Source: a virus. Taken from it: DNA of 64,000 nt. The notes below the pieces were generated by a model, which was not told where the DNA came from, did not search any database, and worked only from the letters and a program-made list of their open reading frames with translations. The first letter of the stretch is position 1. Every line of letters begins with the position of its first letter. This document shows positions 56,026-63,892 of the stretch, piece after piece. Where the stretch lies: IMG/VR virus record IMGVR_UViG_3300028920_000057, positions 24,897-88,896 of that record. One strand, 5' to 3'. A program made the position numbers and the translations under genes.

Positions 56026-56122
56026 GCGTGTGATCGAAGCGATATTTAAGCGTGCGCGTAACCTGAAGGACACTCGCTCCCGCGTGTGATCGAAGCGATA
56101 TTTAAGCGTGCGCGTAACCTGA
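56026..56122. repeat. Perfect 41-bp direct repeat, two copies (56026-56066 and 56082-56122)
   Basis: GCGTGTGATCGAAGCGATATTTAAGCGTGCGCGTAACCTGA twice, 15-nt spacer, in the non-coding strand-switch region. Confidence 0.95.
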
Positions 56123-56297
56123 GCCTATAGGCGAAGGCAGGTGGAGTGTTTCCGTCCGCGTGACCATTTTCTCTCTTTCTCCTTTATACGGACTTTACTT
56201 TCACCGTTTCGAGCCCCTGGGTTAGTTATTACTTCTTTACCGTACATGGGGAGTACCTTTAATTATCTTTTTAATCTTTTTACTATTAGGAGTTATT

Positions 56298-56525
56298 ATG
56301 ATTACTTCAGCTATTAACCTCAAATCTCTTCCCTTTATTAACTTTGATGAAATTGGTTTAAATTGTATGTTTGATGCTGATTATGCATTTATTAGAGAAT
56401 CTAAAAGAACAGGTAAACGTTTTATTCACACATACCATGATAAGAACGAATTCAAACAAGTAATAGTAGAAGAAATGTCAGTACCTAGTACTGCATTCCA
56501 TAAGAAGTTCTTCCGTGTTATCTAA
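56298..56525 (+). CDS. Small early-type hypothetical protein (75 aa)
   Basis: AGGAG RBS, AT-rich codons, followed by a hairpin cassette. Confidence 0.7.
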   Translation: MITSAINLKSLPFINFDEIGLNCMFDADYAFIRESKRTGKRFIHTYHDKNEFKQVIVEEMSVPSTAFHKKFFRVI

Positions 56526-56542
56526 TATACCTACTTGTATAT

Positions 56543-56580
56543 AAAGGGTACTACTATGTAGTACCCTTTTTTTATTTAGT
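56543..56580 (+). terminator. Hairpin/T-tract cassette copy 1
   Basis: AAAGGGTACTAC-TAT-GTAGTACCCTTTTTTTATTTAG. Confidence 0.75.
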
Positions 56581-56658
56581 ATACCCTCAATAGCTATATA
56601 CCTGTAGTAGCGAACCCCTATATACCCTTATTAGCCACCCTTATTATGGAGCAGTATC

Positions 56659-56724
56659 ATGACTCGTTATATCCCCTTTATTATTATTGCCACTGTTACA
56701 GTATGTGCTATGTGTATACTGTAA
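56659..56724 (+). CDS. 21-aa hydrophobic micropeptide
   Basis: GGAG RBS; MTRYIPFIIIATVTVCAMCIL; the only RBS-led ORF I found between two cassettes. Confidence 0.5.
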   Translation: MTRYIPFIIIATVTVCAMCIL

Positions 56725-56755
56725 GTACCTCTCTACTATAACCCCCCCCTACTAT

Positions 56756-56793
56756 AAAGGCCCTTCCTATAAGGGCCTTTTTTATTTAGAACG
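56756..56793 (+). terminator. Hairpin/T-tract cassette copy 2
   Basis: AAAGGCCCTT-CCTAT-AAGGGCCTTTTTTATTTAGAACG. Confidence 0.75.
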
Positions 56794-56832
56794 AACCCTT
56801 TACTATCATTAACCTATATATGGAGCAGTGCT

Positions 56833-57003
56833 ATGAAAGACAGAAAGAACATGACCAATGAAGAAGTGATCGCCCACAACGTAGCAGTAACCAAGAAACT
56901 GGATCACCCTGACGACAGAAGGGCGATGATAGCAGGCGCTATTAAAAAGCAGCCCCACAAGAGGGCTCTGTGGGAGGAGGTCCTGAGAAGGGCTCTCTCA
57001 TAA
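56833..57003 (+). CDS. Small early-type hypothetical protein (56 aa)
   Basis: GGAG RBS; MKDRKNMTNEEVIAHNVAVTKKLDHPDDRRAMIAGAIKKQPHKRALWEEVLRRALS. Confidence 0.65.
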   Translation: MKDRKNMTNEEVIAHNVAVTKKLDHPDDRRAMIAGAIKKQPHKRALWEEVLRRALS

Positions 57004-57016
57004 GACCCCCCTATAG

Positions 57017-57055
57017 AAGGGCCTCCTTATGGAGGTCCTTTTTTATTTTAAACGG
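57017..57055 (+). terminator. Hairpin/T-tract cassette copy 3
   Basis: AAGGGCCTCC-TTAT-GGAGGTCCTTTTTTATTTTAAACGG. Confidence 0.75.
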
Positions 57056-57111
57056 ACCTTACTATTGGGAACTTGTCCATCCCTTACCATTTTTTTATGA
57101 AAGGAGCTACT

Positions 57112-57492
57112 ATGCTCGCAGTTGGTTTTACACTTTTTCTCATCGCTTTTGTAGGAGCTATGTTCCTGCAAACAAAACGGTACGCATCTATGGTGCGTAA
57201 AACGATCGAAATTAACAACAAACAGGCCAGAGACCGGGACCTGAAGAACGTCGAGCGATGCTATCAGAATCACTTGATTCGCTTAGTCCAAAAGCAGCAT
57301 CGTATGATGCGCCAGATGGACCGTCAAGACCGTGCTCTCATAAGAGAGATGGTTAAGAACGGAGAAAAAAGAAATCGCGCCAAAACACAGTGGATGATCG
57401 ATCACCTTGGCCCGAAGTCTGTGTTAGAGAAAAGGCACGACACAGAAGGAAAACGATTCGAAGCATATTCATTATGCGAAGGGAGGATGTAA
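57112..57492 (+). CDS. Hypothetical protein with N-terminal TM segment
   Basis: AAGGAG RBS before ATG 57112; MLAVGFTLFLIAFVGAMFL followed by a basic helical region. Confidence 0.65.
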   Translation: MLAVGFTLFLIAFVGAMFLQTKRYASMVRKTIEINNKQARDRDLKNVERCYQNHLIRLVQKQHRMMRQMDRQDRALIREMVKNGEKRNRAKTQWMIDHLGPKSVLEKRHDTEGKRFEAYSLCEGRM

Positions 57493-57725
57493 TGGACCAG
57501 ATACAAGACGCCCTGATCGATCTCGTCAAAGAGGTCGAATACGAACTAGAAGACAAAGGTCTGGCATCATGGGATGCAGACCAGGCTGAGGCCTTCGGGC
57601 CTTTGGTCGAATTCATGGCAACTCTGGAAGACGCTGTCTTCCACATCAACGTACTGGCTGAGTACTCCTTTGACAACACGCCTTCGGTCATTGCCTCTAT
57701 GGCCTTGACTGAATCCAAGGCATAA
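57492..57725 (+). CDS. Small acidic hypothetical protein (77 aa)
   Basis: GGGAGG RBS and TAATG coupling at 57490-57494. Confidence 0.65.
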   Translation: MDQIQDALIDLVKEVEYELEDKGLASWDADQAEAFGPLVEFMATLEDAVFHINVLAEYSFDNTPSVIASMALTESKA

Positions 57726-57737
57726 TCCCACCACACT

Positions 57738-57776
57738 AAGGGGCCCTTAATTGGGTCCCTTTTTTATTTTAAACGG
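57738..57776 (+). terminator. Hairpin/T-tract cassette copy 4
   Basis: AAGGGGCCC-TTAATT-GGGTCCCTTTTTTATTTTAAACGG. Confidence 0.75.
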
Positions 57777-57912
57777 TCGTTATTGGCCCCTCATGGTTAT
57801 CGGTCGCGCCATGAGGTATATGAGCGCGTAAGTCTCGTCAGTTGATTAAGTTCAACGTGAGCTGCTGCATAGGCCACTTTATTAACTCCCATTATCTTGG
57901 AAAGGATTAACC

Positions 57913-60900
57913 ATGGGAAAAGCAATTGTTAAAGCCCTGAATATGGGCATCAGCTTTGCACACCTGCTCGTGCTCACGCTGTTTGGTCTTTTTGAGAGCA
58001 GAAAGGAGAACTGGGTCGGCAGGGGCGTAGTTCTCGACAAAAACAACCTTCCTGCAGAAATAAAAAGGGCGCTTACGGGCGTCGGCAGAAAACCGCTTTA
58101 TCGCAAGATGAAGCGCAACATCGTTACTGCAGGAGCTGAACTCGTATACTTCTGCAGTAATCCTGACCAGTTCGCTGGTCAATACGGACTCACATGTGGA
58201 TTCTTTGAATGTGAAAACATTCTGGGGATCAATGTGTACAAAAGAGTTGTTGGTGCACGCAAAGTGTCTGGGGGTCCAGTGCCCTATCAACAACTAGAGT
58301 GCAAGGTGTCGCCCTGGTTTGATGAGAATGGTAAACGAAAAATAGTACTTATGTACAAAGCCTTTGTCAAGCTAAATGGCAAGGGCCGAATGAAACATCC
58401 CATTGAGGAAAGTCTTGGAGGGCGCTATGTCTACATGGTGTCTGAAAAGAACACCAGATACATGGACGTTAATGTTTACTCAATCACCTGGGAAGAAGCG
58501 GCCAAGGTCGGCTTCCGAAGAGATGAAGACGGTAAGATCAAAGGCGCGAAAAAGATCCTGCGTCGAATCTTCCGGCACACCGGAGTCCCAGAGGTCACCC
58601 GGAACATGATTGCTGCGGGAGGCTACGTGGATCCCGATCGTGTAGCGATTAACTGGGATGTCCATAAAGATGGTTGTGCCCTGATGACAACCAAGTTCGC
58701 CAATCGTATTGCCAGAACTCAAGGCAAGGTTGTCGAAATGAACAATGGCACTGTCACGCTCGATGGCAGAATTAAACAGGGAGATACTGCCATGGGGCAG
58801 ATGATGGGTGGCACGTTTAAGAAGATGATGTGGATCTTCGTGGATAAGATCCAAGGTCATCCCGAAGCCGACATCATGCTGTATGGACGTCACTTTGTGT
58901 CCAAAGCCCACGTACAGCCCATGTTCAAGGGTTGTCACGTCAGCTTCTGGAAACACCGCCACAACTTCAGGGCTACCGTGAATCTCGGTATGGCCTCAGT
59001 TCTGGAAGGGGTTGGCAAAGCCATCATCCAGGATCTCAAGGTTAGGATCGACGAACTCAAGGCTGATCCTGAGCAGGTCCTGGTAAATGATTCCAGGATG
59101 CCTCTGATAAGAATGCTGAAGAAATTCGGCGTCAAAGAAGAGTATGTAAAACTCATGACTCTTGTCAGGGCTCGTGGTGCCCTCATGTCTAAGTTCAAGA
59201 TGTTAGACGGTACTGAGAAGAAGTATCGTTGGCGTCTTCGCGGAACTGGCTCCGGCCATATCATGGGGTATCACCATGAGACCATGAAGGGTGTCATTCC
59301 TCAGAAACAGGCAAGGTGGCTTCAGAGTCTTGAAGGCAAGAGCTTCAAAGAACTGAATGGTGTATGTCCCGTTGTGATAAACAAAGACGGCACCCTGCTG
59401 TTCACCACCCTGAAGATGGCAGACACTGTGTTCCACCATCGATTTGATACTGCCGACTTTGATGACACAGCTCACGTTATCAAGGTTGGTGAAACGGAGC
59501 CCAAGCGGTTCAAGGCTGTGATGTATCGTTTCCCTGTAAGGAGAAATGGCGTTATCTATGCTGACGTATGGGACTCCAATTCTGATAGGGATTGGACGAA
59601 GTACGACCTGGAAATTATCTGGGGCAAGTACTCTAACACAGAAGATCCGTTCGAATGCGCTCCCAAGGATGGGAACGTTGTAGTAACTGATCCTGAAGAC
59701 ATAAAGGCGCTTGAAGCCAAGTATGTCAAGGCATGCGAAGAATATGCTGCCCAGGAGGCTGTTACGGCTGAAGAGCTGCGGAAGGAGATAACCAAAAAGG
59801 AAGAGGAGCTGATCAACTTTGGGGCCTGGTTCCTAATCCACCTCGCGTGCAGGTTTATCCTGAATTATCATAGAAAGTTTGGGATTCGGTTCTCAGTCGG
59901 GAGAGGGGCGCTCGTGATAACTATCGCAAGCATATCTCCTTCTGACGTGCTAGACTGGTCTTTAGGTCTGGCTAATCTCCCGGAAGACCTTACCAGAGAG
60001 GGTCTCCTCGAAGGTATGGAAACCTTTAAGGACGCCGTCAGAAACGGAGAGCTTCTGGCTCCCAGATCTATGGCTCGTGTCAACCCTCGTGCTCTTGGAG
60101 TCTGGTCTGCAGATGAAGAGCAGTATGCGGATTTTGAAGGTGAAGAGTATAAGGAAGCCCTAGCCTCCAGAACCTTTGAGGATGAGTATGAACAGGACAA
60201 TGTCCAGATTCAGGAGATACTCAAAGAGTTCAAAGCCACCATTGACAATCAGATTGATGTCGCGCTTGATGCGGCAGAAGAGCTGATCTGTCCCGGTGGT
60301 GGAGATTGGGACGACGTAAACTCCGGGGCCTGGCACCTTGGCAAACGCATTGGCGCCATCCATTGGCAAATGGGTGAACTGGCCAAGAACCTGAATAATC
60401 TCGGTCTGTCTAAGGCTGAGAAAAACGAGTTCTGGCGTAAGCGCCAAACAGCGTTAAATCATCTGACTCGACAAATGATAGACAACTGCCTTCCAAAGGC
60501 TGGTTCGTACAAATCTCGGCGTAGATATGTCGAGACTCTTGGATGGCATTTATTCGAATTCATGGTGATAGACCGGAAGTACCGGTATTTCACCCATGAT
60601 CGAGGCTTTGACCTGGCCTGTATGGGCCTGATCAGAGAACGTGCCGGTATGCTGGGGGCGTTCAAGTGTCAACGCCACCGTACTGGGCAAAAGTCGAGGT
60701 GGTATGACCAGGCCGTGAAAACGGTAGTAGGTCTCACCGATGTGGCATTCAGCATGATTGGCATTTCAGAACACAATGCCAAAAACACCCTGAAGCTCAC
60801 TCGGGAGATCAGGTGGTGCAACAGAATTGCTGGTCGTGATGCGGCTGGCAATTTCCTGGATGAAGATCAGATTGATGCTCTGAATGAAAAAGAGCTTAAA

Positions 60901-61047
60901 AGTCAGCGGGATTGGGATCAGCGTCCTGCGGACATCAACCCTGAACTCGTCAAAGAAGTGAACGAATTCATTAAGTCCTGGTACGAGAATGAGTTTGTTA
61001 AGCAGGACAAAACAGAAGAGGAGGATGAAAATGTCTCATCTATTTGA
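57913..61047 (+). CDS. 1044-aa protein, possible divergent single-chain two-barrel RNA polymerase (YonO/cellular-RdRP-like)
   Basis: The ORF is clear (AAGGA RBS). KDGCALMTTKFANRI...GQMMGGTFKKMMWIF...ADIMLY..HFVSK resembles the DPBB-B pattern DG.g.i...a..Q.R..g.KG..DI.l...K; ADFDD (59452-59466) is followed by YRFP. Function is inference. Confidence 0.45.
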   Translation: MGKAIVKALNMGISFAHLLVLTLFGLFESRKENWVGRGVVLDKNNLPAEIKRALTGVGRKPLYRKMKRNIVTAGAELVYFCSNPDQFAGQYGLTCGFFECENILGINVYKRVVGARKVSGGPVPYQQLECKVSPWFDENGKRKIVLMYKAFVKLNGKGRMKHPIEESLGGRYVYMVSEKNTRYMDVNVYSITWEEAAKVGFRRDEDGKIKGAKKILRRIFRHTGVPEVTRNMIAAGGYVDPDRVAINWDVHKDGCALMTTKFANRIARTQGKVVEMNNGTVTLDGRIKQGDTAMGQMMGGTFKKMMWIFVDKIQGHPEADIMLYGRHFVSKAHVQPMFKGCHVSFWKHRHNFRATVNLGMASVLEGVGKAIIQDLKVRIDELKADPEQVLVNDSRMPLIRMLKKFGVKEEYVKLMTLVRARGALMSKFKMLDGTEKKYRWRLRGTGSGHIMGYHHETMKGVIPQKQARWLQSLEGKSFKELNGVCPVVINKDGTLLFTTLKMADTVFHHRFDTADFDDTAHVIKVGETEPKRFKAVMYRFPVRRNGVIYADVWDSNSDRDWTKYDLEIIWGKYSNTEDPFECAPKDGNVVVTDPEDIKALEAKYVKACEEYAAQEAVTAEELRKEITKKEEELINFGAWFLIHLACRFILNYHRKFGIRFSVGRGALVITIASISPSDVLDWSLGLANLPEDLTREGLLEGMETFKDAVRNGELLAPRSMARVNPRALGVWSADEEQYADFEGEEYKEALASRTFEDEYEQDNVQIQEILKEFKATIDNQIDVALDAAEELICPGGGDWDDVNSGAWHLGKRIGAIHWQMGELAKNLNNLGLSKAEKNEFWRKRQTALNHLTRQMIDNCLPKAGSYKSRRRYVETLGWHLFEFMVIDRKYRYFTHDRGFDLACMGLIRERAGMLGAFKCQRHRTGQKSRWYDQAVKTVVGLTDVAFSMIGISEHNAKNTLKLTREIRWCNRIAGRDAAGNFLDEDQIDALNEKELKSQRDWDQRPADINPELVKEVNEFIKSWYENEFVKQDKTEEEDENVSSI

Positions 61048-61486
61048 GGTTGAGTCAAAGAACAAAAGCGGCGTGGTGACTATCCGATCACTGCGCCGTG
61101 TCAAATTCGGTGATGGCGGTAGAGATATCGTCACCATCGATATTGGCTGCAAAGAAGGGTCCAAGACACCCTGGATCAGATATAACCGCAATAAGGGCAA
61201 AAGCCACAAAGGGTGTGAGCTCAAAGGGGCGAAGTGGTATGCTTCGTTCCAGCGGTTCTATCTGGAACAATTCACGGAAGACATGATCGACACGGAAGTC
61301 GAACTTGGACCCACGGTTAAAATTAAGAAGAGAGCAGATGCCGCCGATGTGGTACCTGTTGTAACCAAAATAAGAAAAGACGAGCTCGTTCCTGAACTCA
61401 CCATTCAGGAAGAGCCAGTCGCTGAAGTTGAACTCATGGAAGAGTTCGACGATGGAATCATGGAGGTCGATGATATTGGTATGTAA
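61031..61486 (+). CDS. Hypothetical beta-rich protein with acidic C-terminal tail
   Basis: GGAGG RBS before ATG 61031; overlaps the end of the 1044-aa gene; ends EEFDDGIMEVDDIGM. Confidence 0.65.
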   Translation: MSHLFEVESKNKSGVVTIRSLRRVKFGDGGRDIVTIDIGCKEGSKTPWIRYNRNKGKSHKGCELKGAKWYASFQRFYLEQFTEDMIDTEVELGPTVKIKKRADAADVVPVVTKIRKDELVPELTIQEEPVAEVELMEEFDDGIMEVDDIGM

Positions 61487-61538
61487 TTTAAATCGGAGGT
61501 CCTTCGGGGCCTCCACATTAATAACAAAGATCTGACTG

Positions 61539-61582
61539 AAAGGCCTAGAGCTTATGCTCTGGGCCTTTTTTATTTTAGACGG
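61539..61582 (+). terminator. Hairpin/T-tract cassette copy 5
   Basis: AAAGGCCTAGAGC-TTAT-GCTCTGGGCCTTTTTTATTTTAGACGG. Confidence 0.75.
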
Positions 61583-61626
61583 CATTATGCCGTTACTATC
61601 ATTTAATCTTTTATAGGAGAATTGTT

Positions 61627-62031
61627 ATGAGAAAGATCAATGCAACCCCGCTGGAAGTCCACGAAAACATGAAAGCGCTGGCACTGAAGCATTGGGACGC
61701 TTTAACCCACACAAATGGTTATCAGATATCCAGTATCAAAGCAAAACTGGTCGCGTTGGAAGACAAGCTGAACGAGGGGTGGAAGAAGGTCAACTTTAAG
61801 AACGAGAACGTCTTCTCCCGCCTGATCAAAGAACTCGCAGTTGCGAAATCCTATCAGCTTGATGACGAGCCTCATGGAAAGGTCCTGAATGCGGGCAGTA
61901 AGTGGTATCGGATCTCCATCCTTGATGGAGACGTGACCTTCTACGAGTGGGACGGCCTGACAGATAAGGAGAGGGATCGCAGAAAAGGGATGTTCAATGT
62001 CCGTGGCTCCTTCGAAGGAGGTTGCCACTAA
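61627..62031 (+). CDS. Hypothetical protein (134 aa)
   Basis: AGGAG RBS; flanked by cassettes. Confidence 0.7.
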   Translation: MRKINATPLEVHENMKALALKHWDALTHTNGYQISSIKAKLVALEDKLNEGWKKVNFKNENVFSRLIKELAVAKSYQLDDEPHGKVLNAGSKWYRISILDGDVTFYEWDGLTDKERDRRKGMFNVRGSFEGGCH

Positions 62032-62051
62032 TCAACCTGATCTAACTAAAT

Positions 62052-62094
62052 GCCCTGGAGCATTATGCTCTGGGGCCTTTTTTATTTTCTACGG
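62052..62094 (+). terminator. Hairpin/T-tract cassette copy 6
   Basis: GCCCTGGAGCA-TTA-TGCTCTGGGGCCTTTTTTATTTTCTACGG. Confidence 0.75.
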
Positions 62095-62169
62095 ACCTCC
62101 AAGTGTTAACATTTGCAGCAGGAGGCTCTAAGCAGGAGGTCTTTTAAGGGGGGGGTATTTTTGCTCCGC

Positions 62170-62290
62170 TCGCGTCGCTCGCTACGTATTCGCTCGCGTC
62201 GCTCGCTCAAGTCCTCTCGCGTCGCTCGCGTCCTGTTGGTCGCGTCGCTCCCAACTAGGGTCGCGTCGCTCCCCTACGCTCGCGTCGCTC
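62170..62290. repeat. Array of six TCGCGTCGCTC 11-mers
   Basis: Copies start at 62170, 62194, 62217, 62240, 62261 and 62280; intergenic. Confidence 0.9.
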
Positions 62291-62396
62291 GCGTATCCCG
62301 AAATAACGGTGAAATCTTAATTCCAAACAGAAATAAAGGTGAATTAAGAAAAAAGAGTGTTTGAAGTTTTTTAAAACCTTAACAGAAGGAAGACCT

Positions 62397-63041
62397 ATGA
62401 TTAAAAGTAAAGTAACCGGAAATGTCGTGACGTCCGTTGACGTGTCCAAGATTGCAGTCCGCAATCAGGGCATTGCCGAAACCGCAGCAAAAGACGGTGC
62501 ACTTGCGTGTCGTCTGTGGATTTCGAATGGCCGTGAGGCTACTGACAAATCCGCCGGCTCCAAGGCAGGTATTCGTCTGCAGCTGTCTCTCGTAGACGCT
62601 GAAAAGAATGAGCTTCTGGACTTTGAGTCCAATGAAGACGCAAGCTTCGTCAACAAGATGGAGCAGTTCTTCTGCGGCACACGTCCCCAGGGAGCTCCCC
62701 GTTCCAAAATCAACTATCAGCATGCGGGTGTCCATACCAGGGCAGTCGTTGACGGTAAGCCGTACGAGATGCAGATTCCCCTGTATGAAGATGCCGGTGA
62801 AGGCCTGAAGCTGATGGGCAATATCGTTATTACCTTCGAAGCTAAAGCTGCCAAGACCAGCCTCGGCGAAAACATCCCCGTAACCTCCGGGTTCGGCGAT
62901 AACCTGGCGTCCTACTTCAAGCGGATAGAAGAAGAACAAGACGCAGAAGCGGAACGCCTCGAACAGGAACTCAAGCAGAAGCAGAGCACCGAAGTGGTTG
63001 ACCCTGATTCAGCAAAGAGCACCGTTGAATACGGTGCATAA
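62397..63041 (+). CDS. Hypothetical protein (214 aa)
   Basis: GAAGGA RBS before ATG 62397; acidic helical C-terminus. Confidence 0.7.
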   Translation: MIKSKVTGNVVTSVDVSKIAVRNQGIAETAAKDGALACRLWISNGREATDKSAGSKAGIRLQLSLVDAEKNELLDFESNEDASFVNKMEQFFCGTRPQGAPRSKINYQHAGVHTRAVVDGKPYEMQIPLYEDAGEGLKLMGNIVITFEAKAAKTSLGENIPVTSGFGDNLASYFKRIEEEQDAEAERLEQELKQKQSTEVVDPDSAKSTVEYGA

Positions 63042-63171
63042 TCACCCTAGGGAGAGTAAGACTTGGACATAGCTACGCATCCGCTCATTGGAAGCTAGGT
63101 ATAAGGCTACGAGCTGTTAAGGCAAGTCTTGCTCCCCCTTTTTTTCACACCAGTTATCAGAAAGAAATATC

Positions 63172-63741: not shown

Positions 63742-63892
63742 TTTTCCATAGCTACACTCTTAGTGCAGAGATAAAGAGCAGAGTGTCGCAGTAAGAGAAA
63801 AGACTCCAATCCTTTCAACCAGGTTACCTGTCCTGGATAAACCTGCTCAACAGGCTTTTTATTATCACACCATTTATTATTAAGGAAATATC

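Follow-up and report, generated by a model that had tools for sequence, protein, structure and literature searches.

The 64,000-nucleotide (nt) stretch analysed here, called the window below, makes up the final 64 kb of a virus contig of 88,896 nt in the IMG/VR database (IMGVR_UViG_3300028920_000057; estimated completeness of the contig, 46%), and is present in DNA runs from marine-sediment metagenomes. A megablast search of a phage database returned 0 matches for the sequence. As far as 55.9 kb, the genes lie on the - strand and comprise virion and sugar-enzyme genes; from 56.3 kb on, they give way to a block of small + strand genes, the early block, which is punctuated by six copies of a cassette composed of a hairpin and a conserved T-rich tail. 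Downstream of the last gene of this block, g8, a G-run and six iterons (62148-62300) are followed by more + strand genes with a different upstream motif. The genes (lengths of their products in amino acids, aa) and the elements under study are arranged as follows:

56166-56201, + strand: leader box without a hairpin ahead of g1; a 24-nt T/C-rich block ending in TTTATAC (56166-56189), then GGAC-T-TTACTTT
56280-56286, + strand: TTACTAT beside the ribosome-binding site of g1
56298-56525, + strand: gene g1
56543-56578, + strand: cassette 1, 17 nt after the stop of g1; 12-pair hairpin, loop TAT, T7ATTTA, no ACG
56659-56724, + strand: gene g2 (21 aa)
56756-56796, + strand: cassette 2, 31 nt after g2; 10-pair hairpin, loop CCTAT, T6ATTTA, then GAACGAAC
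56833-57003, + strand: gene g3
57015-57057, + strand: cassette 3, about 12 nt after g3; 12-pair hairpin, loop TTAT, T6ATTTTA, then AACGGAC
57097-57492, + strand: gene g4
ending at 57725, + strand: gene g5
57738-57776, + strand: cassette 4, 12 nt after g5; 9-pair hairpin, loop TTAATT, T6ATTTTA, then AACGG
57913-61047, + strand: gene g6 (1044 aa)
61031-61486, + strand: gene g7
61538-61599, + strand: cassette 5, 51 nt after g7; 14-pair hairpin, loop TTAT, T6ATTTTA, GACGG, a second hairpin, TTACTAT
61627-62031, + strand: gene g8, the last of the early block
62052-62096, + strand: cassette 6, 20 nt after g8; 11-pair hairpin, loop TTA, T6ATTTTC, then TACGGAC

An earlier note on this DNA had described six copies of the cassette. 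The tail pattern TTTTTTATTT indeed begins at 56568, 56778, 57039, 57760, 61566 and 62078, each time on the + strand; 0.52 occurrences were expected in the window by chance, and six or more were seen in 0 of 100 shuffles. The expectation that a genome-wide motif search would find the element in the early region was borne out as well, as the same six matches are the ones present in the whole 88,896-nt contig, all within 56.5-62.1 kb, while the reversed pattern, used as a control, gave 0 matches in the contig. Additional copies of hairpin plus tail were not found in the whole contig when up to two mismatches in the tail were tolerated.

Directly 5' of every tail there is a hairpin of 9-14 pairs (free energies of -14.5 to -24.5 kcal/mol), and the run of six T begins within 0-1 nt of it in all six copies of the window as well as in both copies of the related phage described below. 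The loops agree with the earlier description (TAT, CCTAT, TTAT, TTAATT, TTAT and TTA for copies 1 to 6); they are 3-6 nt long and T/A-rich, contain no G and are mostly of the form YTAT. ACG was said to be conserved in five copies, and is found at offset 14 from the start of the tail in copies 2-6 but is missing from copy 1. A second TTA-loop hairpin reported downstream of copy 5 is likewise present (GACGGCA-TTA-TGCCGTT, 61578-61594), with TTACTAT at 61593-61599. Each stem position pairs in every copy, so that the stems differ yet stay paired, as had been noted; no stem base is conserved across the copies. This observation can be refined, since the stems fall into two families, one formed by copies 2, 3, 4 and perhaps 1, the other by copies 5 and 6. 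As read from the stem sequences, part of the covariation is shared descent, and there are true double compensatory changes within each family.

All six cassettes are located 12-51 nt 3' of stop codons, namely those of g1, g2, g3, g5, g7 and g8, and have the same orientation as these genes. One cassette follows the last early gene, whereas none precedes g1, and the same is true of the related phage. Terminators of the late block on the - strand (at about 31170, 34899, 37351 and 52294) consist of a hairpin with a plain run of T6-T8 and have no ATTT(T)A, in agreement with the statement that they lack the extension. Comparison with Rfam gave only sub-threshold near-matches, to models of small RNAs that end in terminators. 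A sigma70-like match of 9/12 positions (TTTAGA-17-TATCAT) occurs in cassette 5 alone among the six.

The flanks of some copies are also alike. Upstream of cassette 2 there is a run of C8 and a TACTATAAAGG box (56742-56759), upstream of cassette 3 a run of C6 and a TATAGAAGG box (57006-57020). The first cassette of the related phage (L001 9818-9838) has this left flank in common with the two copies, with a layout right after the stop of TAA, a C-run of 6-8 and TA(C)TA(T/G)AA(A)GG that is superfluous for a terminator. Between g7 and cassette 5 (61494-61515) there is an extra GC hairpin, GGAGGTCC-TTCG-GGGCCTCC, which is not followed by a T-run.

An exhaustive protein search identified only five relatives of g6 among 1.8 billion proteins and one true relative (44-46% identity), which was compared with the window through two metagenome contigs, L001 and L002 (a 20-kb and a 4.9-kb piece). 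Viral contigs were scanned with g6 and its homologue, with two alignments and with the leader DNA, which revealed no further relatives, and a scan of genome contigs revealed none. Genes common to both phages are g1 (70% identity), a small hydrophobic peptide like that of g2, g6, g7 (39%), g9 and g11; the relative lacks counterparts of g3, g4-g5, g8 and g10. The relative contains two cassettes, both syntenic with copies of the window. One precedes the g6 leader (L001 9826-9866, corresponding to cassette 4), and the other one, located after g7 (L001 13490-13535 = L002 1440-1485, corresponding to cassette 6), is followed by a G9 run and an iteron array. Cassettes 2 and 3 resemble the first of these, with 86% identity over 51 nt (L001 9813-9861) and 90% identity over 52 nt (L001 9814-9864), respectively. 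Cassette 1 has no counterpart at the syntenic place in L001.

The stems of the relative diverge from those of the window by paired changes, while CC/GG-TTTTTTATTTTAA is unchanged. Positions 7-10 of the tail (ATTT) are invariant in 8/8 copies of two phages whose proteins share 44-70% identity and whose adjacent stems have diverged; among the copies of the window alone, conservation extends to tail position 16-17.

Ahead of g1, a box related to the tail occurs without a hairpin. Its 24-nt T/C-rich block is identical in the relative, the identity ending about 3 nt beyond TTTA; this invariant T/C-rich run is followed by TACGGAC. When the leader box is aligned with the tail of cassette 3 and the sequence downstream of it (TTTAAACGGAC-C-TTACTAT), 16 of 19 positions agree, and none of 300 shuffles gave as good a match. 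At the leader position of TTACTTT, a strain variant from another sample has TTACTAT. With the hairpin-less leader copies included, a T-rich box ending in TTT(T)A is present at seven sites in the window and at three in the relative. A position-weight scan for more hairpin-less boxes yielded none scoring above the training sites.

The earlier note had also drawn attention to TTACTAT after copies 2, 3 and 5 and before the first gene. Its presence and enrichment hold, with four occurrences (56280, 56800, 57059 and 61593) within the 1,194 nt of intergenic sequence in the early block, compared to 0.04 expected. It cannot be counted as a constant component of the unit, though, because its distance from the tail varies (10-17 nt) and because it is not found in the relative. 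Both observations also speak against TTACTAT as the -10 element of g1, a role which was rejected in addition since transcription starting about 7 nt further on would leave out the ribosome-binding site.

On the + strand upstream of g1, no conserved sigma70-type -35/-10 pair was detected. The - strand neighbour, in contrast, has a perfect one, TTTGCA-18-TATAAT (55950-55921), which is located ahead of the sugar-enzyme genes and kept in the relative (L001 about 8895-8866); a second sigma70-type promoter, TTGATA-17-TATAAT, is found at 53405-53377. From the perfect, conserved pair on the - strand and the lack of one before g1, we conclude that ordinary promoters are read by the host, and that the phage employs such host-type promoters for its leftward genes while the + strand block goes without.

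The surroundings of the leader box show further features. A 64-nt non-coding stretch between the box and g1 (56203-56266; L001 9084-9147) is identical in both phages despite protein identities of 44-70%, and a third strain varies there only inside a possible CCCC...GGGG hairpin; the stretch could be a structured 5' leader, a small RNA or a DNA site. On the 5' side of the leader lie two direct repeats of 41 nt, identical to each other, as well as three GCGTGTGA boxes (56026-56066, 56082-56122, 56148-56160). The relative (L001 8968-9045) also has three boxes, CTG(C/T)GTGTGA, in other surroundings. These repeats and boxes may represent operator-like sites at the strand-switch region.

Downstream of cassette 4, g6 is preceded by a conserved, structured leader of 142 nt (57826-57925; L001 9915-10010), with a stem-loop whose loop GATTAAGTTC is kept through 3-4 compensatory changes, and with a second helix in which TCCCAT pairs with the start-codon region ATGGGA. 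This pairing suggests translational control of g6. Several early genes of both phages are moreover preceded by a translation-start context composed of a T-run and ATGAAAGGAG(C) (57087-57114; L002 1846-1873; L001 9150-9171, 9978-10003). The g6 product itself has no match in Pfam, PHROG or PDB, and its AlphaFold model reached a mean predicted local distance difference test (pLDDT) score of 47.

At the other end of the block, a run of G7-G9 and iterons come after the last cassette in both phages (G7 after cassette 6 of the window; 62131-62300; L002 1530-1640), the iterons themselves being different (TCGCGTCGCTC vs GCGCTCGCT). A transcript starting or ending at the last cassette would thus border a likely replication origin. 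The genes beyond the iterons have a different intergenic design (63041-63171, 63742-63892; L002 2460-2562, 3380-3412), comprising a CATAGCTAC box, a long structured region with a terminal T-run, and, at about 20 nt upstream of the ATG, (T)CACACCAnTTAT; the relative also has its ACACCATTA/CACCCCATTT part. The design may constitute a second promoter class.

Comparison of the two phages also indicates that genes have been exchanged at the cassettes. Every unit that differs between them is bracketed by cassettes, namely g3, g4-g5 (replaced in the relative by an unrelated gene of 100 aa) and g8. The copies that flank such a unit are closest to each other, copies 2 and 3 having the C-run and the TATAGAA left flank in common and copies 5 and 6 the stem. 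Cassette 1, which occurs in the window and not in the relative, is not accompanied by a gene change. From another sediment sample (run X3), a contig of 549 nt differs from the window at one position in 98 nt downstream of cassette 4, but contains a hairpin of the relative's type upstream; the switch falls within the 15-nt sequence CCTTTTTTATTTTAA shared by both. An assembly chimera is unlikely in this case because the shared 15 nt are shorter than the 31-mer used by the assembler. Contig breaks of run X2 at cassettes were not used as evidence. Because all copies have at least 15 nt in common, they also act as recombination joints at which genes are gained, lost or swapped; the basis for such a role is the direct comparison of the two phage sequences.

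With respect to function, the first half of the cassette is readily interpreted. The hairpin and its run of six T very probably form an intrinsic terminator, as judged from anatomy and position: a hairpin followed by a T-run, co-oriented with the genes, is located 12-51 nt after stop codons, with a copy after the last gene and none before the first. Like ordinary intrinsic terminators, the cassettes combine a GC-rich hairpin with a U-tract right after the stop codon; unlike them, they have an invariant tail of 12-17 nt across paralogous copies and diverged genomes. That they are more than terminators is suggested by the fact that termination needs a hairpin and roughly the first 6-8 U, yet conservation goes further, and that late terminators of the same phage manage without the extension. 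If all six terminators are efficient, each downstream unit needs a start signal of its own, and the tail is the only element common to all units. A polymerase other than one using sigma70 is indicated by the lack of a conserved -35/-10 pair before g1, when the - strand neighbour has one.

The earlier proposal that the copies are combined terminator/promoter units for the phage RNA polymerase remains the best-supported reading of these data, based on the terminator anatomy, the hairpin-less box at g1 and the missing sigma70 promoter on the + strand; its promoter half we infer. Each cassette would then be a stop-restart unit of the early + strand block, a reading of the sequence for which we see the chances as evenly balanced. 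The GC-rich hairpin would, together with the first six T, act as a factor-independent terminator closing the upstream message, and T6-ATTT(T)A together with ACG(G) at its fixed offset would form the core of a short T-rich promoter, so that the next message would start a few bases past the stop. Gene g1, with nothing upstream to terminate, would accordingly carry the box without a hairpin. That a phage-specific, non-sigma70 polymerase restarts transcription from the conserved tail, which would have a second role as promoter, as in phage P23-45, is in our estimation about as probable as its opposite. A candidate for the reader of such a promoter is a protein of 1857 aa encoded in the tape-measure slot, in which RRWPDLS and, about 35 aa further on, GDFD(F/Y)D (GDFDFD in the window) are kept in a homologue of 39% identity; on these motifs the protein would be a candidate phage RNA polymerase. 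In a more specific version of this reading, which we consider rather unlikely, the T-run of the terminator would itself be the promoter core, with release at T6, re-initiation at the A after ATTTT and ACGG as the first transcribed bases, the polymerase would be a two-barrel enzyme delivered by the tail of a contractile-tailed phage, and the signal of about 17 nt, at which stop and restart would be physically coupled, would also serve as the joint for gene swaps.

A few other phages are already known to have such a layout. In the Thermus phage P23-45, the two-barrel RNA polymerase gp96, which is fused to the tape measure protein, transcribes the pre-early genes (Nat Commun 2024, PMC10770324). 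Cappable-seq of its first seven genes revealed alternating starts and stops, with gaps of 6-49 nt between termination site and next start site; upstream of the starts there is a conserved AT-rich motif, tTTATTCCTTTA, and the A of the ATG is the first transcribed base, so that the transcripts are leaderless (PMC10770324). Seven stops share a 26-nt motif, from which the authors inferred an unusual termination mechanism, and the table of termination sites lists GC hairpins with similar ...CTA loops and T5-6 (PMC10770324). In one P23-45 unit, the hairpin runs straight into the promoter, and in one promoter instance of a related phage a TTATA-loop hairpin is followed by TTTTTTATTCTTTTG (PMC10770324). 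The phage studied here resembles P23-45 in that each small first gene would be closed by a GC hairpin of similar loop and a T-run, in that a candidate virion polymerase is encoded in the tape-measure region, and in that the early block diverges from the structural genes. Compared with the P23-45 motif, the leader box (TTTCTCCTTTA) matches at 9/11 and the cassette tail (TTTTTATTTTA) at 8/11 positions, but so short a T-rich match is a lead rather than a test. A similarity of TTTA-TGGAC of P23-45 to TTTA-TACGGAC was rejected, the P23-45 letters being the start codon of leaderless genes. The phage differs from P23-45 in that no protein sequence similarity was detectable between the two, in its leaders of 44-142 nt with Shine-Dalgarno sites, in having a contractile tail and a separate tape-measure-like gene of 1372 aa, and in its mesophilic, marine-sediment origin.

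A second precedent is provided by the PeSL (promoter-early stem-loop) cassettes of T4-type phages, in which a stem-loop terminator is combined with a near-consensus sigma70 early promoter (-35/N17/-10) (Arbiol 2010, PMC2839356; Comeau 2014, PMC4122927). Like them, the repeats described here are concentrated among small early ORFans, indels between relatives are bounded by cassettes, and recombination occurs inside the cassettes. The nt-1 type stem of PeSLs, A3-4G3-loop-C3T3-4, also resembles AAAGGCC...GGCCTTT of the present phage. In contrast to PeSLs, the sigma70-like 9/12 match is confined to one of six copies, the others being without a properly spaced pair; the conserved part is the T-rich tail, and kinship to T4 is not evident.

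Several observations weigh against the stop-restart reading. ACGG is not kept in the cassettes of the relative, which have TAGCC and ATGGCC instead, and cassette 1 is without ACG. The match to the P23-45 promoter covers just 8-9 of 11 T-rich positions, and the leaderless transcripts of that phage contrast with genes that have AGGAG-type Shine-Dalgarno sites and an ATG 44-142 nt downstream. The 1857-aa protein has no match in Pfam, PDB or ESM Atlas, its alignment to P23-45 gp96 by hhalign was negative, and its AlphaFold model has a pLDDT of 41; g6, compared with P23-45 gp64 by hhalign, gave a probability of 0.1 and hence no similarity. A long U-tract with a single A may simply be a very good terminator, and the ordinary terminator of an unrelated phage family indeed contains T9ATTTTATACGG. 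Common descent, rather than a shared function, could explain why the leader resembles cassette 3. A search of IMG/VR with CCTTTTTTATTTTANACGG retrieved 11 contigs, all of one unrelated phage family and with a single ordinary terminator, which was judged to be a chance match.

In the main rival view, a single early operon begins in the leader and its cassettes are no more than intrinsic terminators or attenuators, the tail being an efficient U-tract. Its uniformity would then stem from duplication, gene conversion and exchange between phages, and downstream genes would be expressed by read-through, antitermination or weak sigma70-like promoters, as in PeSLs; the 9/12 match in cassette 5 would be an example of the latter. 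We consider this explanation possible, if somewhat doubtful. Canonical anatomy and placement are what it predicts, and the two descent families of stems, the near-identity of copies around an inserted gene and the directly observed recombination within the tail fit it well, as does the fact that the relative makes do with two cassettes for the same core genes; the similar tail on the ordinary terminator of an unrelated phage family would also be accounted for. However, four strong terminators would then precede the gene for the 1044-aa protein, and it is difficult to see why the late terminators of the same genome manage without ATTT(T)A. Moreover, the ACG at a fixed offset and the hairpin-less box before g1 are left unexplained, and so is the lack of a conserved sigma70 promoter before g1 in a phage with perfect ones elsewhere.

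Processing or stability elements that split one long early transcript, by RNase III-type cuts or by protection of 3' ends as in the early region of T7, appear improbable. Although hairpins punctuate every gene or gene pair, and although stem covariation implies a structure under selection, the stems have 9-14 bp and no internal loops, compared to about 20 bp or more at RNase III sites; they are followed by a perfect T-run that processing sites do not need, and the conserved part lies outside the helix. To signals at the DNA level, whether pause sites for stepwise entry or sites of replication or recombination recognized as a cruciform plus an A/T tract, we assign a slight probability. That the cassettes keep strictly to one strand and follow stop codons is indicative of a transcription signal, and recombination at 15-nt repeats requires no dedicated function, even if the mosaic joint lies in the tail, the last cassette adjoins the G-run and the iterons in both phages, and the block borders a repeat-rich strand-switch region. 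The comparison with hairpin promoters of phage N4, made in the earlier note, is not supported by these data. In N4 and LUZ7, such promoters have stems of 4-7 bp, a conserved loop of 3 nt with specific purines and conserved stem bases, and transcription starts 8-14 nt from the hairpin (PMC4496689, PMC9163698). Recurrent hairpins among the early genes of a phage with a possibly injected polymerase, with loops that are much alike (mostly YTAT), are reminiscent of this arrangement, in which the hairpin is extruded from supercoiled DNA as the promoter for the injected enzyme. Stem length, loop, conserved bases and placement nevertheless all differ: the stems have 9-14 rather than 5-7 bp, the loops are without the conserved central purine and G, there is no conserved stem base, initiation 8-14 nt from the loop would take place within the stem or the T-run, and in either phage a hairpin is missing before the first gene and present after the last. 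The N4 polymerase is T7-like and not of the two-barrel type. Hairpin promoters of the N4 kind are in our view very improbable.

Returning to the stop-restart reading, if it is true, the 12-17-nt box would be a promoter candidate, read by a phage RNA polymerase that is uncharacterised and probably injected, and the pre-early layout of one gene per message would extend from Thermus siphoviruses to a marine myovirus. If the T-run is itself the promoter core, a promoter would be defined for the first time in a new lineage of polymerases from the tape-measure slot, outside the Thermus siphoviruses. If the cassettes are only terminators, they form an ordinary, though unusually uniform, terminator family. 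Either way, they mark the sites of early-gene gain and loss in this phage lineage.

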